The notes below the pieces were generated by a model, which was not told the DNA's origin, did not search any database, and saw only the letters and a list, made by a program, of their open reading frames with translations. Below are positions 12,295 to 63,101 of a stretch of DNA of 64,000 bases, piece after piece; the first letter of the stretch is position 1; the number at the start of each line of letters is the position of its first letter. The stretch spans positions 12,087 through 76,086 of the forward strand of contig CAZYRK010000002.1 in NCBI GenBank assembly GCA_964650475.1, read 5' to 3'. This stretch comes from an uncultured Candidatus Saccharibacteria bacterium (GTDB lineage Bacteria > Patescibacteriota > Minisyncoccia > Phycocordibacterales > Phycocordibacteraceae). The position numbers and the translations under genes are program-made.

Positions 12295-12759
12295 CTATTT
12301 ATTCAATAACGGGCTGTAATACTCTTTAAGGGCTTTGTTTGAAATGATTTGACTCGATGTTTTGTTTGCTTCTTTCCATGGAGTATGAGCATGGGTAATA
12401 TTAACGAGCTTGCTTGCGGAATAACCACCGAAAGTGTTCCAGATTATTTGAACAACTTTTTTATCCTCTTCGGAAAGCGATGACTTGCCGTCATCAATAA
12501 TCGGATTACTGCCATTACTTCGATATTTTTTATAAACACGCGAAACAACCGGTCCGTACTCCCACGCTTCAATATCATCAGAAAAAAGTGCCCTACCTAA
12601 TTTTGCAATATAATATGCCTGCGCAAAATATAATATCTTTTGTAATTTAAGATTTGTGATTCCTTCGCGTTCCTGATTATCGCCGACAAGCTCTTTTGAA
12701 GCGAGATGGATGAAATATTTTGCAACATTGTCGGCTGTGTAAGTTATTTTTTTAGCCAT
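12295..12759 (-). CDS. Panacea-domain (DUF4065/SocA-like) antitoxin-family protein
   Basis: ..NLKLQKILYFAQAYYIAKLGRALFSDDIEAWEYGPVVSRVY.. matches the DUF4065 core. The likely start is the internal MAKKITYT (12759); the ORF extends to 12822. Confidence 0.65.
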   Translation of the reverse strand: MAKKITYTADNVAKYFIHLASKELVGDNQEREGITNLKLQKILYFAQAYYIAKLGRALFSDDIEAWEYGPVVSRVYKKYRSNGSNPIIDDGKSSLSEEDKKVVQIIWNTFGGYSASKLVNITHAHTPWKEANKTSSQIISNKALKEYYSPLLNK

Positions 12760-12858
12760 ATATAAACTATATCTTGCTGAGTAACAAAAGCCAACAAAAT
12801 CCCGGCAATCATCATTGTGCATAAGTAAAGCGCGCGTAGTTATATATTGTTCAGCACA

Positions 12859-12898
12859 CCGGGCTACTTAGGGGTCGCCCCCCCCTAAGTAGCCCGGG
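12859..12898. repeat. 40-bp hairpin element, copy 1 (flanks hicAB)
   Basis: CCGGGCTACTTAGGGGTCGCCCCCCCCTAAGTAGCCCGGG. The same core is repeated at 13363-13400 in the same orientation. Confidence 0.7.
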
Positions 12899-12905
12899 AT
12901 GTTTA

Positions 12906-13100
12906 CTATTTTTTACTTATGCCTATTATACCGAGGTCATTACAAATTTTTTTCGCAAGAAAGTTATTTATCTCATTATGTCTTGGAACGGTGGATAATT
13001 TTTTAATGGTTGGATTGAGATACACGCTATGCTTTGCACCCTCCCGCAAAAATATACACCCACATTTTATAAGATGTTTTATGAGGTCAGTCCTTTTCAT
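12906..13100 (-). CDS. hicA: HicA-family mRNA interferase toxin
   Basis: 64 aa, MKRTDLIKHLIKCGCIFLREGAKHSVYLNPTIKKLSTVPRH is close to the HicA consensus (..GSHhxF.hP....tVP.H). Confidence 0.8.
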   Translation of the reverse strand: MKRTDLIKHLIKCGCIFLREGAKHSVYLNPTIKKLSTVPRHNEINNFLAKKICNDLGIIGISKK

Positions 13101-13360
13101 TAGATGGAGACAATGAGATTCTCTTTTATAATTTTTTGCTTGCTATTTGACTTATACATCAAACGGTTTGTCTCCAGCACCAAAAAAAGTGCGTCTTTAA
13201 GATTTTCTTTTGTCTCACTCAGTGTGGCACCTTGAGTATTCACGCCGGGGACTTCTTCAATCCACCCAGAGTACCACTTTCCATCTTTTTTATAGTTTGC
13301 TGTAAATTGTCTTTTCATATACATAGTATACATTACATTAATATATAGATGCGAGCCCAC
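13100..13360 (-). CDS. hicB: HicB-family antitoxin
   Basis: 86 aa, ..YKKDGKWYSGWIEEVPGVNTQGATLSETKENLKDALFLVLE is the HicB/UPF0150 fold signature. The stop overlaps the hicA start. Confidence 0.7.
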   Translation of the reverse strand: MGSHLYINVMYTMYMKRQFTANYKKDGKWYSGWIEEVPGVNTQGATLSETKENLKDALFLVLETNRLMYKSNSKQKIIKENLIVSI

Positions 13361-13362
13361 GG

Positions 13363-13400
13363 GGGTTACTTAGGGGTCGCCCCCCCCTAAGTAACCCGGG
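13363..13400. repeat. 40-bp hairpin element, copy 2 (flanks hicAB)
   Basis: GGGGTTACTTAGGGGTCGCCCCCCCCTAAGTAACCCGGGG has an identical loop and core, with compensatory stem changes versus copy 1. Confidence 0.7.
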
Positions 13401-14782: not shown

Positions 14783-15039
14783 CGTCACGGCTTGCCGACA
14801 CTACAAAACCCGATAGTCAGTTAGGATTTAATATTAAAACTATTACAATTTTTTGTCACTATATCTGCCACGCAACTAAGGTGTGTAACTTAATTGCCAG
14901 CACGAAACAGAAACAAAACATATTGTGGATAATCACACTACTTTTATTGACTAAAAAATATCATTAATATAATATTCAAGATACGAAATGCCGGGGAGCG
15001 AGCGTGATGCCGCGATCCGGTTTTTCTATTTGTTTTTGC

Positions 15040-15828
15040 TCAAGGTAATACTTTTATTGCCTCGACCTTATCAAGGAACCTCTTTTTTAAAACTTTGGCA
15101 TTTCTGGGCGCACGAAATATTTTTTTATTAAGTATTCGCAACATAATTTCTTCATAAGAGTTTTTCTTAATTTTCTTTTTAAGATATTTACATTTAATCG
15201 CATATGCGAACAAATCCGCAATTTGCTCCTCTATATCATGATTCTTTTTTGAAACAAAGGATATTGAAGTTATTGTCTCTTGAACTTTTTTATATGATAC
15301 TTTTGGTACAGTGAGTCCCTCTGATAGAAAATACCCGAGTGCGCGATGAAAATAAAAATCTTTTTCTGCTGTCGCGCTTTCAATAACAACCTCTCCGCGT
15401 GAATCATGAGAAAGCAATATCAATATGAAATTGCGAATCATTGATTTTGCCGTTTCTTTGTAGATTTTTGTTTCGTCCCAACCTAATTTTTTGGTTTTCT
15501 CCTTATCAACAATTGCAAAAAACATTTTGAATTTCGAGTCGATCAAAAGAGCCTCGAGATCATGCAAGAAGTTTTTGTGAATATCCTTGCCTCTTAAAAT
15601 TGCAAATTCGCCATCTCTACGTCCAATTTCACGTGAGTGAAAAATTATATCTGTGTGTCCCCAATATTTAAACTTAATTTAATCTGCGAATATTTTTATG
15701 CGCGCTCGCTCAGAATCACTAACCGAGCAGCAAGACAAAACATACAAAGGGGAAGGATGTTTATAGCTTGCATGTCCGAGCTCATCTATAAATAGTTTGT
15801 ATGCGATTTTGTCAAAATGGTTTGTCAT
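15040..15828 (-). pseudogene. DUF3800-family protein interrupted by in-frame TAA
   Basis: N-part (15682-15828) reads MTNHFDKIAYKLFIDELGHASYKHPSPLYVLSCCSV.., then TAA at 15679-15681, then the same frame continues ..KYWGHTDIIFHSREIGRRDGEF...FAIVDKEK...VVIESATAEKD...ADLFAYAI, which is a DUF3800 architecture. The downstream part alone starts at TTG. Confidence 0.55.
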
Positions 15829-16066
15829 AACAAGACAATATATATAATATCAGCAGTATCCAAACATCTCTAATTTAAGTCTAGAAATATAAATATTGGT
15901 AGCTGGTAGAAAACTGCGACAAAAAAACAATGCTATTTTAGCCCTTTATTGAAAGGGCTTTTCTCGCGGTTTTTGAAACAGCCATTGCTTCATATTATCC
16001 TTATATAATCAATTTTACTCATATTGGCTGAAAGATTATCCACCTATGTTCTAAAAAGGGTGTCGC

Positions 16067-18835
16067 ATGTACACCATAAAGATATTAAAATGTAAACCAA
16101 TGCGCGCACATAAGCCCCTACTCTTTTCACTCGCAGTTTTTATCTTTGCTGTTTTGGTAGGCGTGCCTCAAGTCTCTCGGGCAGATACAAATCCAAATAT
16201 TCCACAATGCCCAAGATTCGAAAAAACCGGGCTGCGCTGGACAAATCCAGACCCGCATCGAAACACTTTCAATCAGACTTTTCCTAAAATAGATATGACT
16301 GGGGATATTTTTATATCTAATTATCCTGGTATTTTTATGCAGGACGGTGGCACGTACTCTTTTCCTTTTCATATACCCAGTTTTGGTTATGTGGTTATTG
16401 CAGGTACAAACTGTTCCAAAACAAAAGGCGACCTGTACTTTCTTCCGAAAGATTCCAGCGCACGCCAATTCGTAACGAGCTTCCATGGAGCCGGAGATAT
16501 TTTTGGGGGTTCACCTTACAGCCCACCGGACATTACTTATTTCCAATGGAAAAAATCCGGGCAATACGAGCTTGATATCCAAGAAAAGAATTCTGACACC
16601 GGCACATATGCGCTTACAAAAACCATTCACTTTACAGCAATAAACACCGACAACCCTTGCTCTGCCCCCAATTCCTGTTTTGACAATGTTCTTTTTATCC
16701 CGGGCACCGAAGCGAGCAGACTGTACTACAAAGACGGTTTTGGTGAACACCAAGTATGGGAACCGGATTTTTATACCGATATACCGTACCTAGAAATGAA
16801 CCAAGACGGCACGAGCAAACACACGCTGTACACGAAAGACATTATCGGGAGTTTGTATGGGAACACTACGGTCGAGAAAAAGATTGCTCTGCAATACTTA
16901 AACCAGGACGGAGTACAGGTCTACGGAAACTTCGAAAAGTTTATGAACGGGCTCGTAGCTTCAAGCACAATTAAGCAATGGTCTGCTTACCCCTACGACT
17001 GGCGCTACAGCGCGGACGACATTGTAAACAACGGAACTCTCACAGAAATGCCAAACGGCACCTTAAAACGCGTTTATATTGAAAAAGAGATCGAAAACCT
17101 TGCGTCAAGCTCCCCGACGGGGAAAGTAATGATTGTGGCACATTCAAATGGTGGTTTGGTTGCAAAAGAGCTTTTACAGAAACTCTCCAACGACGGCAAG
17201 CTAAAGCTTGTTGACAAGTTCGTTATGGTTGCCACTCCGCAATGGGGTACACCGGAAGCTATCGGCGTACTATTGCATGGAGACGGACAGACTCAAGCGC
17301 ACGGGCTTCTTATGAGCAGTGCCGAGACCCGAAGAGTAACAAAAACAATGCCCGGAGCTTACGACCTTTTGCCATCCTGGGAATATTTTCAGCAAATTAC
17401 TATTCCGGTTATCACTATCGATGCAAACGGCTCCGCCACAAACGACCTTGCAAAAGCTTTCGGAACAAAAATATCTTATTTCACAGAATTCGCAAATTTT
17501 CTTGAACACGGGTTTGGATATTTCCCCGCCCCGCAAGACACGGACACAGCACTGCGCACACCTATAGCTCTTTCCAAAAAACTCATCGATAAAGCAAAAG
17601 ACATGCATTTTCTTATAGACGTAGCGACCAGATGGTCGGATCTTTACGGTATCGACGTAACAGCGATAGCAGGCTGGGGGCAAAACACAGTAAAAACACT
17701 GGCGTACTCTACCGGGCAAAAAACAATCTGCACAAACCTCACCGCCGATGTTATAAACGCTTTTGAACCTCCGTGCCATACCTACTATTATCTCGAACAC
17801 ACACCGGTAACAACCCAAGGTGGAGACGGCACCGTCGTTTATCAAAGTGCTGTTGGAAATATTATTCACGAGTTGTTTTTTGATTCTTTTCTTTTCAAGA
17901 AAATCTTCCACGAGAAAATAGTCCACCAAAACATAACCTCCGCACCGCCAATACAAAATGTAATTAAAGACATTCTTACAAACAAAAAAGTACAGAAAAC
18001 AAACTACATAACAAAAACAAAACCTTCTTCCGGTGAAACTTTCCACGAAATCCGTATAAGCTCTCATTCTCCGGTAAATATTCTTATAACTTCCGCAAAC
18101 GGGGAACAGAGCGGTGTTGTCCATATTCCCGGCACAGACTTCTCTGGAACAAAAATGGATATTCTAGGAAGCTCCGTGCAGGTTTTCGATACAGAAGAGT
18201 ATGTAAGCCTTCCAAAAAATGGAAACTATAAAGTGGTTGCGCGGGGTCACGGAAACGGCACAGCAACAATACTTATTGAAACGATAGCCCAAGACGGAAC
18301 TGCGAGCACTACAAATACGTTTGCGGAAATTCCGACCACGGCAAGCTCCACCATTACTTTCTCCGTATCAAAAGGACAGCCTACAGCACCTATAATAGAC
18401 CTCACAGGAACCGGCAAACACACTTTTACCATACCTGTTGGCAACGACCCGCTCGCATATGTTCTTTATATGAAAAACGCGATTAAAGAAATGAATCTCT
18501 CTCGCGGTGAGCACTTTGTTATCAATGCAAAGCTCTCCGTGATAGAAATGCAGATAAAAAGCTCCAAAGAAACATCGCGATTTTTCAGAAAGGTGTGGCG
18601 AGGACACAGACCATACGGCAAACTGAGCGCCTGGCGAAACAAACAGATTAAATTTGAGCTTGCTGTTCTTACTCGCTATATCAACCACCAGTTTTCTCTT
18701 TCTGCGCGTATCGATAAAAATAAAGACATGCGCTCGCATCGGCACTTCGCCCGATACAATATGCAACCACACATAAGTGCGACGCAAGCTGAAACCATTA
18801 TCGATATGATCAACCGCCTAAAAAACTTAATCTAA
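16067..18835 (+). CDS. Secreted alpha/beta-hydrolase (lipase/esterase-like, GHSxG-type nucleophile elbow) with large C-terminal region
   Basis: 922 aa with a signal peptide (MRAHKPLLFSLAVFIFAVLVGVPQVSRA) and IVAHSNGGLVAKELL nucleophile motif typical of PGAP1/lipase-class hydrolases. The last ~120 aa are unusually basic. Confidence 0.6.
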   Translation: MYTIKILKCKPMRAHKPLLFSLAVFIFAVLVGVPQVSRADTNPNIPQCPRFEKTGLRWTNPDPHRNTFNQTFPKIDMTGDIFISNYPGIFMQDGGTYSFPFHIPSFGYVVIAGTNCSKTKGDLYFLPKDSSARQFVTSFHGAGDIFGGSPYSPPDITYFQWKKSGQYELDIQEKNSDTGTYALTKTIHFTAINTDNPCSAPNSCFDNVLFIPGTEASRLYYKDGFGEHQVWEPDFYTDIPYLEMNQDGTSKHTLYTKDIIGSLYGNTTVEKKIALQYLNQDGVQVYGNFEKFMNGLVASSTIKQWSAYPYDWRYSADDIVNNGTLTEMPNGTLKRVYIEKEIENLASSSPTGKVMIVAHSNGGLVAKELLQKLSNDGKLKLVDKFVMVATPQWGTPEAIGVLLHGDGQTQAHGLLMSSAETRRVTKTMPGAYDLLPSWEYFQQITIPVITIDANGSATNDLAKAFGTKISYFTEFANFLEHGFGYFPAPQDTDTALRTPIALSKKLIDKAKDMHFLIDVATRWSDLYGIDVTAIAGWGQNTVKTLAYSTGQKTICTNLTADVINAFEPPCHTYYYLEHTPVTTQGGDGTVVYQSAVGNIIHELFFDSFLFKKIFHEKIVHQNITSAPPIQNVIKDILTNKKVQKTNYITKTKPSSGETFHEIRISSHSPVNILITSANGEQSGVVHIPGTDFSGTKMDILGSSVQVFDTEEYVSLPKNGNYKVVARGHGNGTATILIETIAQDGTASTTNTFAEIPTTASSTITFSVSKGQPTAPIIDLTGTGKHTFTIPVGNDPLAYVLYMKNAIKEMNLSRGEHFVINAKLSVIEMQIKSSKETSRFFRKVWRGHRPYGKLSAWRNKQIKFELAVLTRYINHQFSLSARIDKNKDMRSHRHFARYNMQPHISATQAETIIDMINRLKNLI

Positions 18836-19301
18836 CTTTATGAAACTCTGGTATAAAAAATCTAGCCTTTTCATACTCGCCGGCATTTCGTATCTTGTCG
18901 GGCAGTATTTTAGAGGAGAATGGTGGCCTTTTTTCACATGGCCATTCAAATGCAATATGATAACTTCAGGAACCGCCATGTACTGCGACCCTAAATATAT
19001 GGACACTCTCGGCTTTCCTCTCATCGTCCTCGGACAGACGCTCGCTATCGTTGCGCTCATACTTTTGCTTGCAAACGAAAGTGCTTTTCGCAAATGGCTT
19101 CACTTTAGTTATTGGTATGTGCCTGTTGCAACAATACTCTCGTTTATGATGTATCCCGCCCATACCCCTCTTGGCGGAGAGGTTTCTATTTCGCAAGGTG
19201 TTTATTTGTTTGGGAGACCGTATGTTCTCATCACCGCCGGGATTGTAATTCTATATATTCTAAAATTCCTAAAGAGACAACTTCGGGAAAGGAGACTCCG
19301 A
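18791..19301. repeat. 511-bp direct repeat, copy 1
   Basis: Identical ORFs on both strands and identical boundary sequence imply that 18791-19301 equals 19990-20500. It includes the last 45 nt of the hydrolase gene. Confidence 0.75.
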
Positions 19302-19989: not shown

Positions 19990-20500
19990 GAAACCATTAT
20001 CGATATGATCAACCGCCTAAAAAACTTAATCTAACTTTATGAAACTCTGGTATAAAAAATCTAGCCTTTTCATACTCGCCGGCATTTCGTATCTTGTCGG
20101 GCAGTATTTTAGAGGAGAATGGTGGCCTTTTTTCACATGGCCATTCAAATGCAATATGATAACTTCAGGAACCGCCATGTACTGCGACCCTAAATATATG
20201 GACACTCTCGGCTTTCCTCTCATCGTCCTCGGACAGACGCTCGCTATCGTTGCGCTCATACTTTTGCTTGCAAACGAAAGTGCTTTTCGCAAATGGCTTC
20301 ACTTTAGTTATTGGTATGTGCCTGTTGCAACAATACTCTCGTTTATGATGTATCCCGCCCATACCCCTCTTGGCGGAGAGGTTTCTATTTCGCAAGGTGT
20401 TTATTTGTTTGGGAGACCGTATGTTCTCATCACCGCCGGGATTGTAATTCTATATATTCTAAAATTCCTAAAGAGACAACTTCGGGAAAGGAGACTCCGA
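19990..20500. repeat. 511-bp direct repeat, copy 2
   Basis: See copy 1. It starts with a duplicated fragment of the hydrolase 3' end (..ETIIDMINRLKNLI*). Confidence 0.75.
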
Positions 20501-26110: not shown

Positions 26111-26150
26111 TTGCTCGTGGATAATGCAGATATTTATTTATACCAACGCG

Positions 26151-26184
26151 AAAAACCGGCGCGCCTTCGGCGCGCCGGTTTTTC
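26151..26184 (-). terminator. Hairpin terminator after the cohesin-like gene
   Basis: AAAAACCGGCGCGCC-TTC-GGCGCGCCGGTTTTT. Confidence 0.55.
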
Positions 26185-26228: not shown

Positions 26229-26990
26229 TTATCGAAAGAGTCGTTTGCGGTTTGTCCAAAGCACAATACCAAGAACTATCACAAGCGCCACAATCGCCCA
26301 AAAAGTGGTTGTGAAAGGAGTGCTACCTTGTATCGGAGCACTCGCCGCCGCCTGAAGAGGCATCTGCGTTACAGTGCCGGAAGCCATTGCGGTACTCGTA
26401 GCGGTGCTTGTCGCCTCTACGGCAACAACAGTTGCTACAGGAACCGTTTTCTTTACGGTCTTTTTAGTATACGTTTTGTGCACCACTTTTTTTGGAGCTT
26501 TCTTTACCACTTTGTGAGGAGCAGAAACAGCAACGACAGCGACCCCTTGCGTACCGGAAATCGTGTTTTTGCTATTTTCATCGAGCACGAGCGAATTGCC
26601 CGTAACACTGATATTTGCCGTACCGGAAGCAACCGCTGTAAAGGTTATGGTTCCAAAAAGTATCGGCGAGGAAATACCACCAGGGTACCCTGCTGTTTTT
26701 ATAATCAAACCGTTTGTGTTGTCTGTTAGGTCGTATCCACTCGTAGAAAGCGCGAGCCATTTTGGAGCGAAAGTAAAACTTGTTACATGCACGAGCTTCG
26801 GGTTAAAAGAAACGTTTGCCCGCACAGTATAGACCTTTTCACCGACAGGGTTTGCTGTCACGTTTATCGTGAATACTTTGCCCGGGGTTACAGAAACCGC
26901 CGTAGGCGAAAGCGTTACGTTTGAAGCGAGAGCAGACGCTGGGAGCACTACAGAGAGTGCAACGATTAGAGTTAAAAGAAATCTTTTCAT
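26229..26990 (-). CDS. Secreted cohesin-like domain protein with K-rich linker and C-terminal TM anchor
   Basis: 253 aa with a signal peptide. The beta-sandwich region (VTLSPTAVSVTPGKVFTINVTANPVGEKVYTVRANVSFNPKLVHVTS...) has a cohesin-like pattern, followed by a KK/VV-rich linker and a hydrophobic C-terminus + RKRLFR. Confidence 0.5.
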   Translation of the reverse strand: MKRFLLTLIVALSVVLPASALASNVTLSPTAVSVTPGKVFTINVTANPVGEKVYTVRANVSFNPKLVHVTSFTFAPKWLALSTSGYDLTDNTNGLIIKTAGYPGGISSPILFGTITFTAVASGTANISVTGNSLVLDENSKNTISGTQGVAVVAVSAPHKVVKKAPKKVVHKTYTKKTVKKTVPVATVVAVEATSTATSTAMASGTVTQMPLQAAASAPIQGSTPFTTTFWAIVALVIVLGIVLWTNRKRLFR

Positions 26991-26998
26991 ATATTATA

Positions 26999-27628
26999 TT
27001 ATGTTTGCCAATTAACGATAAGAATATTGAAGTCGAGGATACCGACAACATCGTTGCCATTTAGATCGGCATCAATATTGCTTCCTTTCTGACCCCAGTG
27101 AACCAAAAGAGCATTGAAGTCGAGAATATCTACCTTTCCATCGTGATTTATATCACCGGCGGGGTAGGTTGTACTGACTGGTGTGTAGCTTCCGCCTCCG
27201 CCACCGCCTCCGCCTGAAGAAGGTGCTGGTGAATCGTTCTCGTTAATAACATACGTGAACGAAGCAAGCGGTGAGGTTTTCGATCCGTAACACGCGACAG
27301 CTCGCAATAATGCGGAACCTGTAACCTGAACAGGTTCTGCTGTGTCATAAACCATACCATTATTACAGGAAAGTTCAAGGTCTCTCGTGTTAATCATGTA
27401 GTGAATAGACGAGGCACCGGAAGCCGACAAAGCAACGCTCTGCGCTTCATCGTATGTACCACCTGTCGGTGTGGCTGTTGGTTTTGCCATAACAAACCCT
27501 GTTACTCCTGTGCTCACATTACCTGCGTTTGACCCTTCGCCAGGGGCAATCGTCTGCCAACCTGTCGTAGAAGCAAATGCTGGTGTCGCAAGAGCTAAAG
27601 AAAATATAACTGCAAAGATGTATTTCAT
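26999..27628 (-). CDS. Secreted protein with C-terminal dockerin-type module (two Ca-binding repeats)
   Basis: 209 aa with a signal peptide, poly-Gly linker, then GDINHDGKVDILDFNALLVHW and DLNGNDVVGILDFNILIVNW, which are tandem dockerin-like EF-hand repeats. Confidence 0.6.
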   Translation of the reverse strand: MKYIFAVIFSLALATPAFASTTGWQTIAPGEGSNAGNVSTGVTGFVMAKPTATPTGGTYDEAQSVALSASGASSIHYMINTRDLELSCNNGMVYDTAEPVQVTGSALLRAVACYGSKTSPLASFTYVINENDSPAPSSGGGGGGGGSYTPVSTTYPAGDINHDGKVDILDFNALLVHWGQKGSNIDADLNGNDVVGILDFNILIVNWQT

Positions 27629-27648
27629 AATGATATTTTCTAATCAGT

Positions 27649-30600
27649 TTATAATGTAGGGGCTTCTGACTTAAATGCGTACGACGATGAGTACGACAAT
27701 CCTTCAGCACTATCTGTCGGTACTTTCATCTCTACAACAACCTGCACTTGCCTTCCCGGAACAGTAGGATACATATCTGCATTTGCGTTTAATGTAATCG
27801 GTCCTGCAAACGTATTTGCTGAATCAATCATCATTGCGGTGCTTGCACTGTTTGCATCCGATGATTGCGGACTATAGAAACGAATGTTTCCATCTGCAGG
27901 AATTATATTTACGCCATCACTCGTTTTGAAATCTTTAAACTTCATTGATAGATCCGTTTCGTTCGTCGGTACCGTTACGTCAAACACCCAGCTCCATCCG
28001 TTTTCAAACGTACTGCCGACTGTCGCCATGGTGCTACTTGCGGTAACTCTAGTAACACCGAGCGAAGCAATATCATTAAACACGATATACATAACCGGAA
28101 CATTCACAGTATCTCCTGTTGATGAAGTTACTATCACATTGTAGGCATGGTAACCAAGCGCAGATGCATCTGTTGGTGTCGCTACCGTTAGCGTTGTTCC
28201 GTCTGTGTCAACGCTTGTTGCTACACCGTTTACAGTAGTGCTCTCTACACCGGTAGTTTCAAACTGCAAACCATTTACAAAGCGAGCAGACGCCTGTGTA
28301 GAGGTGTACGCCGTAAGTAGCGGGTCTCCATTTAGGATAAGTGTCGGGATTATAGGGGTAATTGTATTTGCATTTACGTTGTACGCTACTGTAATATTTG
28401 TGAAGTTACCTGTTGGTGAAGTTACAACAACATTATACACATGAAGCCCAAGAGTGGTTGCGCCTGCAATAGTTGTTGTGGCGGCATTGGCGTCTCCAAC
28501 CAAAGTTGCACTTATTCCGTTGACAGTAACACTCGCTGCACCAGTCAATGTGAATTGCAATCCGTCAGTAAAGCGAGCTCCTGCTTCCGTTGCTGTATAT
28601 GGAGAAGCAATTGCATCTCCATACAGTGCGATAGTTGGTGTTATAGGAGTAACAGTATTTGCATTTACTTGATACCCAACTGTTTTGGTTACGGTATTTC
28701 CTGTTGAGGAAGTAACTTTTACTGTGTACAAGTGCAATCCGAGAGTTACGGCACCCGTAGATGTCACTGCGGTTAGTGCTCCATTTCCACTTGTCGGTAC
28801 AGTTACGCTCGTTCCGTTAACAGTAGCGCTTATGGCGTTTGTGACATCAAACTGCAATCCGTTAGTAAACCTGCTTGTCGCCTGATCAACCGTGTATGGT
28901 GATGCGATTGCATCGCCATCAAGTATAAGGGTCGGTTGTACGACGGGGGTTGCGGTGAATTCAATTGTATTGGCTCCAGTAGCTGTTCCACCCACTTCTG
29001 TGGCAGTCACATTGACCCACCCGGCAATAGTATTGGTTATCGTAGTGGCTGTGCTACCGAGCGCTCCCATAGTGAGAAGATTTAAACCAAATGAAGCCCC
29101 GTTGTCTCCGATAAGTGTGAGCTTGGTTGAACTATCATTTACTACTGTGTAGTCACTCGCGTCTTTTGCCGTAACAGTAAGAGTTGAATCATGATTTACC
29201 TCTTGTGGATTCGTGCCAAAGCTCAGGTCAAACGAAGCGATCGGGTCGATTGAAACTAATGTACAAGTAAATGTGTTTGTTCCATTACCATCATTAACAG
29301 GAACATCCGTACAGAATGGGCTGAAATCTATGTTATCTGATGCAGATGATCCGATTCCTGATGGGTTAAGAGCGTCATTTTCAGGTCCTGTTTTATCACC
29401 CCACCAGTTTTTCTCTGCGTTGAATGAGCTATTGCTCCACGCGCCATTAAGAACGTTACCTGCTATATTATTTTCGCTCGCCGTGATAGAAGGCTCTGTA
29501 GTATTCCCTGTTGTGTAATCTCTTACTAAGATACCGTAATCGTTTGAGTTAATTGTGTTGTTGTTAATAGAACCTGTTGTTCCAAATTCGTTATAGCCAA
29601 AATAACTAAACCATTGGTCTGCACTCCATACGGCAATTCCTGTTGGATATGCGTTTCCTGTATGAGCAAGACCTGTAATATCATTGTTGTGAATATTTAC
29701 AGCATTAGATCCTACAGACCAAACGCCAAACTGGTTATTGGTAAGAGTGTTACCTGATACTTCAACAGTGCCAGAAGTGTGATACAAAAGGATTCCCGCT
29801 GCTCCATCTGCCGTTGTATCTGTTGTTGGATTATTATCAGTAGAATATGTGTAAATACCAGTCCAAACATTGTCTTTAACTGTATTGTTTTTGACCTTCC
29901 CAGTGGCGCCAAAACCAATTTGAATACCGTTTTGAGCGATTGAAGTAGTTGGACCCATGCCTGTTACTGTGTTGTCGTGGATATTTGCTGTCATGTCGGG
30001 ATAATTCGCAGTAATACCATTTTTTAGATAGTCAGAAACAACGTTGTCTTTAACTTCCAATGAAACCGATGTGGCATCATGCCCAACCAAATACATTCCT
30101 CCGCCATTATGGATATTGATACCGCTAATATCCATATTAGCAATTACACCACTAGTGTCTCGATAAAAGATGCCAACGAGTTCCGCACTAGAAGGTGTCG
30201 ATGTAATAAGAGAGCCATCTATTTTGAATCCGTGAATGTTAACAGTTTCTCCGTTTGTATTTACTCCGATAATAGGAGCTGTGTCTTTATTACTGCTATC
30301 AGTTCCTCTCGCAAAAAGTTGAAATGCACTAGCTGTTGCTTGAGATGGTTTAATAATAGTTGTGTTCCCTGCACCTTGAAGCGTTAAGGATTTGTTAATT
30401 ACAACTTGTTCGTCATAAGTTCCAGCGGCGACATCAATCGTTGTAATTCCATCAACAGAAGCATCGATTGCCCCTTGAATTGTTGCAAAATCTGGTGTTC
30501 CTGTTTTTGCCACGGTCAAGATTCCGTCAATATCGTATACAAACGATACTGACCTTGAAACTGTGTTCCCTGCCTCATCTGTGACAGTAAGGTTAATAAT

Positions 30601-32235
30601 ATGTCGTCCATCAGTAAGGTTTGAAATTGTATTACTCACTTCCCCACCCGATGTACAACTAACAAGTACCGAGCTTCCGCTATCTATCGTGTAAGAACAT
30701 GTGAGCAGGCTTGCATCAGTCGGAGTAAATATAAGTGTTGGGTTCGAATTGTGGTAGACAACATTCTCACCTGGCGAGAGAAAATCGGGGATCGTCGGAT
30801 TCGTGGTATCAATAACAAAAGTGTGTGTGCCATTAGATACCATTACGTTACCCGCAGCATCTGCTCCGTCAGTCAAAGTTATCGTAGCTGTACCATCTGA
30901 GCTGGGTTGGGTAATTGTGTAATCATAAGTCCATGTATCAGTTGGGGCTGTACCTAACATAGGTGTTGCTGAAACAGTATCAATGGTTCCAGCCGTATCA
31001 ATCGCGATTTGCGGTGCTGTTGTTAATGGCTCGCTGAATTTTACAGTGATTGTATGTGTTCCGGCATTGAAGTATTGTCCATCACTACTTACAGCATCGG
31101 TTGCAGTTGAGACCGTCGGCTTCGTTTTATCAAAAGTAACAGTACTACTATCAGTTGTATTCGTTACTTGTATACCTGAATTACCAGCCACGTCACTAAA
31201 ATCAATCGCGAAAGGAACTACCCTCTCGGAGTCACTTGATTGCATCGTATAAGTAGCTGCCCAAGAAGCTCCCGAACCAGTTACTAACGCTGAATTTCCA
31301 CCAATAGTTACTGTCAGGGTTTGAATATCCTCATCGGCAGTGATGTTCACTGTAATCTTGTCACCAACCTTAGCAAAACTTGAATTAGAATTTTCCGAAG
31401 TTATACCTACAGTACTTAATGTAGGTGCTGTTTGATCAACATAAATAGTACCATCGCTTGGAGTACCTGTTGTAGAATTGCCGGCATTGTCTGTAATGAC
31501 TGCTCCAAGTGTAATATTTTTACCGTCAGCAAAACCAGTCAATGCTTCAAAGGTTGATGCTTGGATACTTATCGTGGTTGTGTTTCCAGTACTATTGTCA
31601 ATATTTACCGATGAACCCAAGTCCACAAAACTACCGCTGCCAATCTGTGCCTGAAGTTGAATATTCCCACCTATTAGTGAGCTGTCACTGGAGTCTACAG
31701 GAACGACAACCTTCAATGCCGTGTTAGTAGAGTTCCATTTACCAGAAACAACATTTCCACCTGACGCAGTAACACCTCCAACCGTAAAGCTAGCTGGTGC
31801 TGTGGTGTCAATAACAAATTTATGTGAACTATCAGATGCCATCACATTGCCAGCAACATCTGTTCCATCAGTCAGAGTTATCGTAGCTGTACCATCTGAG
31901 CTGGGTTGGGTAATTGTGTAATCATAAGTCCATGTATCAGTTGGGGCTGTACCTAACATAGGTGTTGCTGAAACAGTATCAATGGTTCCAGCCGTATCAA
32001 TCGCGATTTGCGGTGCTGTTGTTAATGGCTCGCTGAATTTTACAGTGATTGTATGTGTTCCGGCATTGAAGTATTGTCCATCACTACTTACAGCATCGGT
32101 TGCAGTTGAGACCGTTGGGATTTGTGTATCTACTTTTACTTCTTTTGAACTTCCGACAACTTCAACATTTCCTGCATTGTCTGTTGATTTCCATACTATG
32201 AAGTTAGTACCGTCAGGAACCGCAAACGGATCCAA
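27649..32235 (-). CDS. Giant surface protein (beta-helix/PbH1 repeats, Big-like repeats), C-terminal 1528 codons
   Basis: Parallel beta-helix repeat stretch (..NNTIIKP..NIHNNDITG..), duplicated ~100-aa module, and three ~95-aa C-terminal repeats. The same frame continues upstream through a TAG into ORF 32362-32826. Confidence 0.7.
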   Translation of the reverse strand: MDPFAVPDGTNFIVWKSTDNAGNVEVVGSSKEVKVDTQIPTVSTATDAVSSDGQYFNAGTHTITVKFSEPLTTAPQIAIDTAGTIDTVSATPMLGTAPTDTWTYDYTITQPSSDGTATITLTDGTDVAGNVMASDSSHKFVIDTTAPASFTVGGVTASGGNVVSGKWNSTNTALKVVVPVDSSDSSLIGGNIQLQAQIGSGSFVDLGSSVNIDNSTGNTTTISIQASTFEALTGFADGKNITLGAVITDNAGNSTTGTPSDGTIYVDQTAPTLSTVGITSENSNSSFAKVGDKITVNITADEDIQTLTVTIGGNSALVTGSGASWAATYTMQSSDSERVVPFAIDFSDVAGNSGIQVTNTTDSSTVTFDKTKPTVSTATDAVSSDGQYFNAGTHTITVKFSEPLTTAPQIAIDTAGTIDTVSATPMLGTAPTDTWTYDYTITQPSSDGTATITLTDGADAAGNVMVSNGTHTFVIDTTNPTIPDFLSPGENVVYHNSNPTLIFTPTDASLLTCSYTIDSGSSVLVSCTSGGEVSNTISNLTDGRHIINLTVTDEAGNTVSRSVSFVYDIDGILTVAKTGTPDFATIQGAIDASVDGITTIDVAAGTYDEQVVINKSLTLQGAGNTTIIKPSQATASAFQLFARGTDSSNKDTAPIIGVNTNGETVNIHGFKIDGSLITSTPSSAELVGIFYRDTSGVIANMDISGINIHNGGGMYLVGHDATSVSLEVKDNVVSDYLKNGITANYPDMTANIHDNTVTGMGPTTSIAQNGIQIGFGATGKVKNNTVKDNVWTGIYTYSTDNNPTTDTTADGAAGILLYHTSGTVEVSGNTLTNNQFGVWSVGSNAVNIHNNDITGLAHTGNAYPTGIAVWSADQWFSYFGYNEFGTTGSINNNTINSNDYGILVRDYTTGNTTEPSITASENNIAGNVLNGAWSNSSFNAEKNWWGDKTGPENDALNPSGIGSSASDNIDFSPFCTDVPVNDGNGTNTFTCTLVSIDPIASFDLSFGTNPQEVNHDSTLTVTAKDASDYTVVNDSSTKLTLIGDNGASFGLNLLTMGALGSTATTITNTIAGWVNVTATEVGGTATGANTIEFTATPVVQPTLILDGDAIASPYTVDQATSRFTNGLQFDVTNAISATVNGTSVTVPTSGNGALTAVTSTGAVTLGLHLYTVKVTSSTGNTVTKTVGYQVNANTVTPITPTIALYGDAIASPYTATEAGARFTDGLQFTLTGAASVTVNGISATLVGDANAATTTIAGATTLGLHVYNVVVTSPTGNFTNITVAYNVNANTITPIIPTLILNGDPLLTAYTSTQASARFVNGLQFETTGVESTTVNGVATSVDTDGTTLTVATPTDASALGYHAYNVIVTSSTGDTVNVPVMYIVFNDIASLGVTRVTASSTMATVGSTFENGWSWVFDVTVPTNETDLSMKFKDFKTSDGVNIIPADGNIRFYSPQSSDANSASTAMMIDSANTFAGPITLNANADMYPTVPGRQVQVVVEMKVPTDSAEGLSYSSSYAFKSEAPTL

Positions 32236-32361
32236 ATACGCAGACCAATGCGTTCCGTCGTCAAGACTATAGCTTGTTGAGGAACATCCGCTTCCTGTAA
32301 CTCCGCTAACGATATTGTCATTACATGTAAGTGTAACTGTTGGTGCTGACGTTGACGTATA

Positions 32362-32826
32362 CTATCCTGTAGAACTTGGATTTTCAGGAGAAATAGAATA
32401 TGTAGTTTCAGGTGCGGTGTTATCTATGGTGAAAGTTTTAGAAAAACCGGACCCTCCATTCGCTCCAGTAACACGCACCTTGTATGTACCGTCATCAACA
32501 TTAATCGTATTCCATAAATAAGATTCCGTACTAATTGAATTTGCACCAGTTATTGGTACCGGTGTTACCCCATTAGAGAAATCGGAAGAGTATACTAAAG
32601 TATACGGAGATGAGGTGTTTGCATTATTTATAGAACTCCATGTAATGTTTTTACTGCCACGCACATATAATATATTTGATACTGTAGTACCTGATACACT
32701 TACTTCATAAGATGCTGATGTAGCACGTACCTGACCGATGAAGAACCCGCCCATTATGACCGTGATAATTGAGAACATTGCAATGAAGGTCGCTTTGCGT
32801 CCAAAGCGAGAATACAAATTATTCAT
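32362..32826 (-). CDS. N-terminal signal-anchor segment of the giant surface protein (separated from the rest by in-frame TAG at 32362-32364)
   Basis: MNNLYSRFGRKATFIAMFSIITVIMGGFFIG is a signal anchor. It ends ..SISPENPSSTG-TAG-YTSTSAPTV.., in frame with 27649-32235. Confidence 0.6.
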   Translation of the reverse strand: MNNLYSRFGRKATFIAMFSIITVIMGGFFIGQVRATSASYEVSVSGTTVSNILYVRGSKNITWSSINNANTSSPYTLVYSSDFSNGVTPVPITGANSISTESYLWNTINVDDGTYKVRVTGANGGSGFSKTFTIDNTAPETTYSISPENPSSTG

Positions 32827-33037
32827 ACATTTAAGTGTTAGTGGTATTAAAAGGTACCTTTTTTATTTTCTTTCACGTTCGGTTTTTCACGGGTTTTTCA
32901 CAGATACAAATCGCCCAAGCGTTTTGTATCTACATCCTCCTCTTTACGGCGTAGTAAGTCAATATTGTGTTTTTTGAGAAATACTTGATAATTTGTGGCG
33001 GTTTTTTGGGAAGGTGCGGGTGGGTTGGAGATTCGGG

Positions 33038-33092
33038 AGCACACACAAAGCGCCGCGCGGGCTTCGCCCGCGCGGCGCTTTGTGTGTGCTCC
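33038..33092. terminator. Long GC-rich hairpin (27-bp stem)
   Basis: GGGAGCACACACAAAGCGCCGCGCGGGC-TTC-GCCCGCGCGGCGCTTTGTGTGTGCTCCC lies downstream of gene 33130-33606. Confidence 0.45.
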
Positions 33093-33129
33093 CGTTATAA
33101 CTATATATAAAGGAGTGTTTTTTTGAAAA

Positions 33130-33606
33130 CTATGCCGGACTAAGAGGGCTCTTCACAGCCTGGTGCACGAAACGCACTGAAATAGCGACTGTGTTTACAA
33201 TCTCTTTGCCAAAAGTCTTTTCCGGCTCAAGACTAATAATCTCATAATGATACGTGCCTTCGCTTGTTACCGGAAAGCCGTTAAATTGTGCTCGGAAACG
33301 TGCGCGTTTGTGTTCGGCTTGCAAGGCTACCTCTGCTTTGTTTTCGTGTAGTATCTTTCCGCTAGGGTCGCGCAAAAGAACCTTAAACTTTAGAGAAAGA
33401 GGCGTGCCTGTTTCTTCACGCACCCACATACTCACCATATGGTGGTTTACCGGGATTACGGAATTATCGGGGACAGCCCCTGAAACCTGAAGTGTAAGCT
33501 CTTCCAGAATGTCAAAAAGCGAGACAGTGTTATTGTCACGATCGATAGAGGAAGAAAGCGAAACTATCGCCCACGCGTTTTGTAGTGTTTCTTTATTCAT
33601 AGTCAA
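33130..33606 (-). CDS. Hypothetical protein
   Basis: 158-aa ORF, no recognisable family. Confidence 0.4.
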   Translation of the reverse strand: MTMNKETLQNAWAIVSLSSSIDRDNNTVSLFDILEELTLQVSGAVPDNSVIPVNHHMVSMWVREETGTPLSLKFKVLLRDPSGKILHENKAEVALQAEHKRARFRAQFNGFPVTSEGTYHYEIISLEPEKTFGKEIVNTVAISVRFVHQAVKSPLSPA

Positions 33607-45932: not shown

Positions 45933-45996
45933 ATTATTTACATAATACAACACGTTCACCAAACGTACACAAAAACTTTTGCGTATCCTTCTTTGT

Positions 45997-46524
45997 TTGG
46001 GAAGGTTAGACCTTCCCAACTTCCCAAGAACCATCTTTGGCACTTTTTGGGAAGGTCTAACCTTCCCAACTTTCCACAAATAAAAACCTAAGCGGTATGC
46101 CGACACTCGTTTTGCGGACACTAAGTGTCCGCAAGTGGGCTAGAAATCGTAATCGGAGAGTATGTCGAGTTTGTGTTCCATGCGCTCGCGAGCGAACTCT
46201 TTAAAAGACCCGGGCTCATTGAAGATTTCTCCGAGGAGCTCAGTGTCTAAAATCGGTGATACATTTTTCGAATTCTCGACAGGAGCACTCGTTTTGCGGA
46301 CACTAAGTGTCCGCAAGTGGGAAAGAAAGTGTTTGCGTAGCATGTTTTGCGGACACTTAGTGTCCGCAAAACAAGTGTTTGCGTTTCGTCCGTGCCATAT
46401 TGTTTTGTAATGTAGCGTGTGGTTTTTCATCAGGAGAGACCAGCTAACATTTTGGGAAGGTCTAACCTTCCCAACTTCCCGAGAACCATCTTTGGCACTT
46501 TTTGGGAAGGTTAGACCTTCCCAA
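45997..46524. repeat. Cluster A of 23-bp perfect-palindrome repeats R1 (TTGCGGACAC-T[A/T]A-GTGTCCGCAA) and R2 (TTGGGAAGGT-[TAG/CTA]-ACCTTCCCAA) with shared flanks
   Basis: R2 is at 45997, 46047, 46452 and 46502. R1 is at 46112, 46294 and 46347. Connector segments are shared (GAACCATCTTTGGCACTTT; CCACAAATAAAAACCTAAGCGGTA). Confidence 0.85.
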
Positions 46525-46570
46525 CTTGAGTGGGTGTAATTCATGTGAAAATTGCGGTAAACAAAAAGCC

Positions 46571-46618
46571 CTGCGACATTAAAACTTTTTAAAAAGTTTT
46601 AATGTCGCAGGGCTAAAC
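46571..46618 (-). terminator. 48-bp perfect palindrome terminator after pilB-pilC-orf139
   Basis: AGCCCTGCGACATTAAAACTTTTT|AAAAAGTTTTAATGTCGCAGGGCT is followed on the minus strand by TTTTTG. Confidence 0.5.
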
Positions 46619-50984: not shown

Positions 50985-51048
50985 CAAAACAAAGCGCACC
51001 GCGGGAAAGTTTCTAAAGAAACTTTCCCGCGGTGCGCTTTGTTTTACG
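50985..51048. terminator. Long bidirectional hairpin terminator (24-bp stem)
   Basis: AAAACAAAGCGCACCGCGGGAAAGTTTC-TAAA-GAAACTTTCCCGCGGTGCGCTTTGTTTT. Confidence 0.5.
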
Positions 51049-55526: not shown

Positions 55527-55578
55527 ACCCACACACACAACAGCCCCGACCTTAAAAGGTCGGGGCTGTTGTGTGTGT
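55527..55578 (+). terminator. Hairpin terminator
   Basis: ACACACAACAGCCCCGACC-TTAAAA-GGTCGGGGCTGTTGTGTGTG. Confidence 0.5.
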
Positions 55579-55617
55579 GGGTTTTGGGTGACAAACAGGT
55601 AAATGGTTTGGTGTCTG

Positions 55618-55955
55618 TTTTGCGGACACTTTTGCGGACACTAAGTGTCCGCAAACCGATGTTTGCGTTTCGTCCGCGTCATATTGTTTTTTTTGCGGAC
55701 ACTAAGTGTCCGCAAACCGAGACCTTCCCAACTTTTTTCCACAAATAAAAACCTAAGCGGTACGTTGCGATGGATAGGGTAAGACATGTCCGAGCGGCCC
55801 GGAGCATGTTTTGCCGACACTTTTGCGGACACTTAGTGTCCGCAAAACATGCTCCGCAAAAACTCTCTGCCGCTTAGTGTCGGCAGAGAGTTTCGCGTGT
55901 GGTTTTGGGGTTTAGATAGACCGGCTAACATTTTGTGAAGGTTAGCCCTCCCCAA
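55618..55955. repeat. Cluster B of R1/R2 palindrome repeat family
   Basis: R1 is at 55632, 55693 and 55823, with partial copies and a related hairpin CTCTCTGCCG-CTTAGTGT-CGGCAGAGAG. There is a half R2 at 55722, a degenerate R2 at 55933, and the same connector CCACAAATAAAAACCTAAGCGGTA as cluster A. Confidence 0.8.
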
Positions 55956-57554: not shown

Positions 57555-57608
57555 CGCATATCAGACTTAATAGTAACCGGTACCGGTTACTATTAAGTCT
57601 GATATGCG
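57555..57608. repeat. 54-bp perfect palindrome (27+27, no spacer)
   Basis: CGCATATCAGACTTAATAGTAACCGGT|ACCGGTTACTATTAAGTCTGATATGCG lies in the divergent thyX-rny intergenic region. Confidence 0.85.
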
Positions 57609-61326: not shown

Positions 61327-61382
61327 ATACCTTTCATAGTACACCGCCAAACAAGCAGTGTCTGCGCTTGCTAAGCCCAAGC

Positions 61383-61430
61383 CCACACCAAAGCGCCGTG
61401 CCTTAAAAGGCACGGCGCTTTGGTGTGGGC
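61383..61430. terminator. Hairpin terminator
   Basis: CCCACACCAAAGCGCCGTGCC-TTAAAA-GGCACGGCGCTTTGGTGTGGG. Confidence 0.5.
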
Positions 61431-61449
61431 TTGGTCAAGTACAACAATG

Positions 61450-62988: not shown

Positions 62989-62994
62989 GGGGTT

Positions 62995-63036
62995 GCTGAA
63001 TTAACACCTGAAGTGCACTTCAGGTGTTAATTCAGC
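62995..63036. repeat. 42-bp near-perfect palindrome abutting the transposase remnant
   Basis: CTGAATTAACACCTGAAGTG|CACTTCAGGTGTTAATTCAG. Confidence 0.7.
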
Positions 63037-63101
63037 AGATCTGGTGGAAAAGCTTTAATTTAACGTACTTTATAATTTCTTTATTCTGGGTTTGCGACTA
63101 T

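Follow-up and report, generated by a model that had tools for sequence, protein, structure and literature searches.

Two neighbouring open reading frames (ORFs) on the minus strand of a 64,000-nucleotide stretch of DNA from an uncultured Candidatus Saccharibacteria bacterium (assembly GCA_964650475.1, contig CAZYRK010000002.1, positions 12,087 to 76,086; the whole stretch is called the window below) raise the question of whether they are two genes or the pieces of one and, if the latter, what the TAG codon between them represents. The codon might be a true mutation, an error of the consensus sequence, a codon that is translated, or one state of an on/off switch. The evidence described below indicates a single gene for a giant, probably secreted or surface-exposed, protein, and the TAG is probably a recent nonsense allele that truncates it.

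One gene interrupted by a stop codon

The list of ORFs contains one of 154 amino acids (aa) on the minus strand (32826..32362, with an ATG start and a TAG stop) and one of 1528 aa (32235..27649, counted from the first TTG). When translated together, positions 32826-27649 form one frame of 154 sense codons, TAG, 1570 sense codons and TAA; its 5178 nucleotides (nt) make up 1726 codons, amongst which the TAG is the sole internal stop. The parts are as follows.

32362..32826, minus strand: 5' fragment, 154 codons plus TAG; N-terminal module aligning colinearly with residues 1-150 in proteins 1049-1889 aa long
32362..32364, minus strand: in-frame TAG, codon 155; derivation from TGG by a G-to-A transition (coding strand) well supported
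27649..32361, minus strand: 3' remainder, 1570 sense codons and a TAA stop, without any other disabling mutation

The codons around the stop are ...TCT ACA GGA TAG TAT ACG TCA..., and the protein sequence is ...SISPENPSSTG, stop, YTSTSAPTVTL.... The 5' fragment encodes, in order, a basic N-terminus, a hydrophobic stretch of 20 residues, ...QVRA/TS, and one immunoglobulin (Ig)-like module reaching to FTIDNTAPET; judged by eye, the N-terminus is a putative Sec signal peptide or signal anchor. At the composition of the frame ~95 stops would be expected in 1570 codons, and the probability of encountering none is ~3e-43; the frame 3' of the TAG is thus a real and intact coding sequence. The first-pass annotation, made from the letters alone, had described the 154- and 1528-codon ORFs as one 1725-codon gene split by a TAG. 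Translation of the frame, and the homology that spans the stop, show its coordinates, sequence context and codon count all to be correct. Further disabling mutations downstream, which it had proposed as the mark of a dead gene, are absent from the 1570 codons.

Evidence that the two parts belong together comes from relatives. The only relative found among the GTDB species representatives, on contig JALUVW010000060 of a Candidatus Falkowbacteria metagenome-assembled genome (L002), has an uninterrupted ORF of 1517 aa, the N-terminus of which aligns across the stop (...FTIDNTAPSTNYSILPKSPNSVSGWYNALVGAPTVTLSC... in the relative; ...FTIDNTAPETTYSISPENPSSTG, stop, YTSTSAPTVTLTC... in the window). 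When the 154-aa fragment was used as query in a full HMMER search, 56 of 1.84 billion representative proteins matched, and several of these, with lengths of 1049-1889 aa, are colinear with it from residue 1. Gene callers do report the 154-aa ORF as a gene, and it could be argued that two truly separate genes, one for a small anchored protein of Ig type and the other for a large protein, share a frame by chance. This is scarcely credible, because both parts are found within single ORFs of 1049-1889 aa in relatives, and the stop breaks a conserved segment, GWY...PTVTLTC. Moreover, the first in-frame start codon 3' of the TAG is the TTG at 32235, the 42 codons that lead up to it from the TAG are homologous coding sequence, and there is no signal peptide behind the TTG with which a downstream protein could be exported on its own account. 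The reading as two separate genes was rejected on these grounds.

The ancestral codon can be deduced from the same relatives. In a MAFFT alignment the column of the TAG is occupied by tryptophan in all 11 of the 11 relatives that have the domain following the first Ig-like module, whilst more distant copies of the domain, mostly actinobacterial, have A, N, D, H or V. Amongst the residues whose codons are one substitution from TAG (W, Y, Q, K, E, S and L), W alone occurs at this position in homologues. A single G-to-A transition from TGG, with loss of an ancestral tryptophan, is therefore well supported by the alignment, as the first-pass annotation had supposed.

TAG as an ordinary stop codon

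An in-frame TAG in an otherwise intact frame need not terminate translation. A suppressor tRNA, pyrrolysine, reassignment of TAG or efficient readthrough would allow the full-length protein to be made, and the intact frame downstream, which is the sole point in its favour, would follow naturally. Several observations nevertheless make this extremely unlikely. All three stop codons are in use in the window, the 66 long non-overlapping ORFs ending with TAA (34), TAG (24) or TGA (8). TAG ends conserved genes at their normal ends: those for EF-Tu (tuf), S7 (rpsG), L2 (rplB), L23 (rplW) and S10 (rpsJ) have the usual C-termini and are terminated by TAG, and the genes for NifS and TIM are of normal lengths and have a TGA stop. 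The single tRNA found in a scan of the 64-kb window is Gly(TCC); a CUA anticodon, a suppressor tRNA and pyl genes are all lacking there, and a search of the window against Rfam returned no family other than this tRNA-Gly. No stimulatory RNA structure is evident 3' of the stop, since the 121 nt around the TAG fold no better than shuffled sequences (z -0.14). Finally, the residue in homologues is tryptophan, which is not a known position of pyrrolysine. The giant gene is the only single gene in the window to be cut by an in-frame TAG; other neighbours that share a frame are adjacent, separate genes.

An alternative genetic code and pyrrolysine were thus rejected on the basis of stop-codon usage, conserved C-termini, and the tRNA scan and Rfam search of the window, and a recoding or readthrough structure on the basis of the folding comparison. 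TAG is a genuine stop codon in this genome.

A strain-variable island

The same organism (99.3-100% identity) is represented in the Logan assemblies of SRR14803397/98, SRR6439370-72 and SRR32234002, in the NCBI metagenomes VAPK01, VAPL01 and VAPM01, and in the JGI datasets 3300003543 and 3300028843; a relative at 94-96% identity is found in ENA ERZ23491265. No paper was found in a literature search on the sample accessions. The flanks of the giant gene are present on some 12 contigs, drawn from 10 further samples or assemblies, and every one of these stops at a palindrome upstream of it, at a deletion junction or at 30483. The features concerned are the following.

33034..33094, unstranded: perfect palindrome, 61 nt with a 29-bp stem, separating the giant gene from the 156-aa gene upstream
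26999..27628, minus strand: downstream gene for a 209-aa secreted protein, with a CHB_HEX_C-like and a dockerin-type domain
26229..26990, minus strand: downstream gene for a protein of 253 aa, signal-like at the N-terminus and with a hydrophobic segment at the C-terminus
26768..33111, unstranded: segment absent in a deletion haplotype; microhomology (CTCC) at either end

The contigs on the upstream side, which are products of De Bruijn graphs, end in the palindrome (33065) or just short of it. On the other side, Logan contig L001 (SRR14803397) corresponds to window 30483-26162 at 100% identity. In three contigs, L005 (SRR6439371), L020 (VAPK01) and L025 (VAPL01), position 33112 is joined to 26767, a deletion of 6.3 kb after which nothing is left of the palindrome, the giant gene or the dockerin-like gene, and the 253-aa gene lacks its first 74 codons. 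The junction, at which ...AAAAAAACACTCC is followed directly by AAAATGGCTCGCG..., is identical in L005 and L020; that of L025 is offset by two bases, which reflects either an independent event or later substitutions. It appears that at least two samples carry the deletion, VAPK01 and SRR6439371 possibly being the same sample.

Other arrangements also exist. A contig from JGI 3300028843 (L024) departs from the window at 33109 into unrelated DNA with an ALDH-like fragment (L024:785-990). The contig of the ~96% relative (L026) is colinear with the window only from 27214, and the 3' end of its giant gene, upstream of that point, has no DNA homology to the window; positions 1-701 of the contig, set against window 27215-27900, encode a second type of C-terminal module (...PGRQIQFDVYTKLP...GFY.TTYGI), as in proteins P0051, P0059 and P0072. 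In a VAPM01 contig (L007) the differences from the window are confined to a mosaic patch, 27174-27466, within the dockerin-like gene; substitutions and indels are clustered there and include a Gly-rich linker, the surrounding 1.5 kb being 100% identical. A Logan contig from SRR6439370 (L011) begins at 27324, inside this patch. The deletion, the replacement and these further arrangements together establish that ~27200-33112 is a strain-variable and dispensable island, so that loss of function in its main gene would come as no surprise.

A mutation in the cells or an error of the consensus

Several points weigh against a mutation that is truly present in the cells. The TAG rests on a single consensus, no other assembly that was found covers 30484-33064, and an exact look-up of the 154-aa product, also from two alternative starts, returned the source NCBI contig (80,515 bp) only. 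An exact pattern with N at the middle base of the codon gave 0 matches in metagenome contigs and 0 in viral contigs. The end of L001 at 30483 falls at the boundary between the Ig-module and beta-helix parts of the gene, where there is no repeat or palindrome; this suggests strain heterogeneity within the gene, the N-terminal part perhaps existing in several versions in the sample, such that the consensus may mix alleles, and 30483 itself may be a branch point between strain variants. An intact remainder is also what a consensus error would leave behind. It should be noted that absence from the protein collection is uninformative with regard to alleles; the cut Logan products were not found, but a complete Logan product is missing too.

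The corresponding alternative is that the TAG is an artefact of sequencing or of consensus building, or belongs to a minority allele that came to stand in the consensus, the cells carrying TGG in an intact and functional gene. It would be in keeping with the flawless remaining frame of 1570 codons and with a site known from one contig only, and the region is one in which all other assemblies fragment and which contains an internal repeat, ~240 nt of which are exactly identical between its two copies, making for difficult local assembly.

31802..32118, unstranded: internal direct repeat, copy 1, 317 nt
30803..31119, unstranded: internal direct repeat, copy 2, 317 nt; duplicated Ig-like module

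We nevertheless regard this alternative as unlikely. The TAG is outside the repeat and outside any homopolymer, and no housekeeping gene in the window is disrupted. The window matches independent assemblies at ~99.97-100% over 36.8 kb; compared with the Logan contigs of SRR14803397 there are 11 differences in that length, seven of which are in the repeat-confused end of one contig (L009). GGATG and GGATGG motifs, which were looked at as possible sites of methylation-linked error, occur in the window, their counts being without an expected value.

In addition, the other in-frame stop of the window, which the first-pass annotation had pointed out in an accessory gene, is real.

15040-15849, minus strand: DUF3800 gene, with an in-frame TAA at 15681-15679; the Pfam match (E 7.6e-9) runs across the stop

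Five other assemblies (SRR14803397, SRR6439370/71/72 and VAPM01) have the same TAA, so the DUF3800 gene is a real, fixed pseudogene and the lineage does carry real nonsense pseudogenes. From these considerations we infer that the TAG of the giant gene is probably present in cells and not just in the consensus.

The block 14812-16031, in which the DUF3800 gene lies, is missing in the ~96% relative (L026) and may thus have been inserted recently between rpsL and an LCAT-like gene.

Is the nonsense codon a switch?

Phase variation has large surface proteins among its typical targets. The TAG could on this account be one state of a programmed, high-frequency on/off switch of an adhesin, and presence/absence and allelic variation are clear at the locus in the population. 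We consider such a switch highly unlikely. Scans of 27600-33150 with the tandem repeat finder TRF and with regular expressions turned up two units of 11-12 nt in ~2 copies, both at a distance from the stop, and a T7 run at 33118-33124. In the gene, at or near the stop and in the promoter region there are no simple-sequence repeats, no homopolymers of >=7 and no invertible segments. A slipped-strand or invertible switch was rejected for want of such tracts in the scans. The palindrome at 33034-33094, the RNA of which would fold with -68.4 kcal/mol (z -13.7) and which has no T tract after it, is a plain palindrome and not a pair of flanking inverted repeats. A point nonsense mutation, moreover, reverts only at the rate of base substitution.

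The 317-nt internal repeat brought a diversity-generating retroelement into consideration. The mismatches between its copies are of all types and not adenine-specific, and there is no reverse transcriptase nearby, the only RVT_3 match in the vicinity being an RNase H gene; this candidate was rejected.

The giant protein and its family

The ancestral protein, of ~1725 aa and predicted to be secreted or exposed on the cell surface, would have comprised a signal or anchor, Ig-like modules, an OmpL47-like domain, a beta-helix, three ~97-aa repeats and a C-terminal module. The domains recognised are listed from the N-terminal side.

32149..32340, minus strand: OmpL47-type / CHB_HEX_C-like beta-sandwich domain, residues 163-226 (NCBIfam NF047446)
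30532..30759, minus strand: Big_13 bacterial Ig-like domain (Pfam PF19077, 39 bits against a cut-off of 27)
29677..30174, minus strand: right-handed beta-helix (Pfam PF13229, 46.5 bits against a gathering threshold of 25.9; NosD PF05048, 27.8 bits)
27652..28074, minus strand: conserved C-terminal module, ...ENGWSW..VTVPT.ET..MKF.DF...IRFYS.QSSDAN...PGRQ..V.VEM.VP...

The NF047446 match (35.2 bits, E 1.2e-8) is below the cut-off of 40 bits and is domain-like only; the TAG lies in the segment leading into this domain (GWY...PTVTLTC). The first-pass description of a beta-helix and Ig-repeat surface protein with an N-terminal signal or anchor agrees with the Pfam matches to Beta_helix, Big_13 and NosD and, by eye, with the N-terminus. 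The C-terminal module, the last ~140 residues, is 65% identical to that of L002 and is also found in P0042, P0044, P0049 and P0018-P0020; it has no match in Pfam or the PDB, and a sequence search for protein structures with the protein gave none. The window protein, P0042, P0044, P0049 and L002 have in common both this module and the N-terminal one (signal, Ig-like, DNT.P...GWY...TLTC), and the relatives P0051, P0059 and P0072 have the second type of C-terminal module (...GRQ.EFDVFTKLP...GFY.T.YGI...). On the basis of these sequence comparisons the giant protein belongs to an uncharacterised family of proteins of 1000-1900 aa.

The 209-aa protein has marginal matches to Dockerin_1 (22.5 bits, cut-off 22.9) and CHB_HEX_C_1 (20.2 bits, cut-off 22). 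Over its first 132 aa it is 50% identical to the product of the gene downstream of the L002 orthologue, and the pairing of giant gene and dockerin-like gene is therefore conserved in that relative. The 209-aa gene is probably co-transcribed with the giant gene. The 253-aa protein has no family match. A scan for promoters and terminators was uninformative, the promoter counts being no higher than the shuffled expectation. At 32881-32901, ~60-80 nt upstream of the start of the giant gene, there are two to three direct copies of GTGAAA(AACC), which may be a regulatory site.

What, then, would be the consequence of the TAG? The proposed event is the change of the Trp-155 codon from TGG to TAG by a G-to-A transition. 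As TAG is an ordinary stop in this genome, translation would end after residue 154, and the product would be an exported or anchored stub with a single Ig-like domain. The other 1570 residues, including the beta-helix and the C-terminal module, would not be made or, if translation were reinitiated, would not be exported, because none of the start codons available to them is followed by a signal peptide. The event is likely to be recent, because the rest of the frame is untouched, and the allele could persist in a population in which the island is elsewhere deleted or replaced. A putative polar effect on the two downstream genes is possible.

Three states had been put forward in the first-pass annotation. 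Of these, a fresh pseudogene is the best supported, by the intact remainder, the genuine TAG stop, the dispensable island and the real DUF3800 stop; a nonsense switch finds no footing, given that the window shows no tract, invertible element, recoding structure or suppressor tRNA for it. The sequencing error has been weighed above.

A broader interpretation can be offered tentatively, as one to which we give some credence but which we would not expect to hold: a single giant surface protein may be under strong, fluctuating selection, of which the nonsense allele, the 6.3-kb deletion and the non-homologous replacement would be parallel results. If this were so, the pressure might be, for example, the use of the protein as a phage receptor or host-attachment ligand, and 'on' and 'off' cells would be kept at the locus without a dedicated switch. 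Surface proteins of bacteria with very small genomes are prime candidates for interaction with a host or with phage.

For annotation, the two ORFs should be treated as one disrupted gene, neither as two genes nor as evidence of an alternative code. The locus as a whole is a small hypervariable island which encodes an uncharacterised giant surface-protein family and for which nonsense (probably), deletion and replacement alleles can be described, and it supplies a concrete single-nucleotide polymorphism and a deletion junction for genotyping in public read sets.

Other features of the window

The gene content of the window includes a ribosomal-protein operon broken by toxin-antitoxin genes, NrdDG, ComEC and pilin-like genes. 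Taken with the only relative, L002, it suggests a member of the candidate phyla radiation. In the region of the str operon, genes for a HicA toxin, a UPF0150/HicB-like protein and a SocA/Panacea antitoxin-domain protein lie between rpsG and fusA (12295-13400, from gene calls in contig L012). A perfect direct repeat of 511 nt (18791-19301 and 19990-20500, spacing 1199 nt) duplicates an ORF of ~158-165 aa and is present as a single copy in L026. Two adjacent pilin-like (N_methyl) genes each have at their start a copy of a 77-nt repeat of 91% identity (45996-46072 / 46451-46527), and a dispersed family of 25-60-nt repeats is common to the intergenic regions 46100-46380 and 55620-55870. There are also many long (35-61 nt), near-perfect intergenic palindromes, at which De Bruijn-graph contigs of other samples end.

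33034-33094, 50986-51045, 57555-57608, 61377-61434, 55527-55582, 46567-46614, 62994-63037, 26150-26184 and others: palindromes

Comparison with known systems

UAG is recoded in nature, both as pyrrolysine and in phages and bacteria in which TAG is reassigned (genetic code 15). The likeness to such cases is the in-frame TAG in an otherwise intact long ORF; unlike them, TAG here normally ends conserved genes, only a single gene is interrupted by it, and the window contains no tRNA-CUA.

At contingency loci, such as opa of Neisseria and those of Haemophilus, on/off variation of adhesins is produced by slipped-strand events in a mutable repeat tract or by an invertible element. The present locus resembles them in the probable loss of a surface protein through premature termination but differs in having neither tract nor invertible element.

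Flexible or hypervariable genomic islands, described in the 'metagenomic island' literature, encode giant cell-surface proteins in environmental bacteria. The region described here is like them in that the flanks are conserved, the surface-protein gene is replaced, deleted or divergent amongst near-identical strains, and assemblies fragment at the borders. Unlike such islands in general, it is small, at ~6 kb and three genes.

The closest documented parallel is provided by inlA of Listeria monocytogenes, in which premature stop codon (PMSC) alleles arising from single bases truncate a large surface protein and circulate beside intact alleles; the truncations have been shown experimentally and are linked to attenuated virulence (PMC12427964; PMC10299213). 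Both are natural single-base nonsense alleles in the gene for a large surface protein, if the TAG of the window is, as we think probable, carried by the cells. The cases differ in that the stop here is at codon 155 of 1725, such that nearly the whole protein would be lost, and in that the allele is taken from one consensus of an uncultured organism. The phenomenon is already known, and the giant gene probably adds a new instance of it in an uncharacterised protein family.

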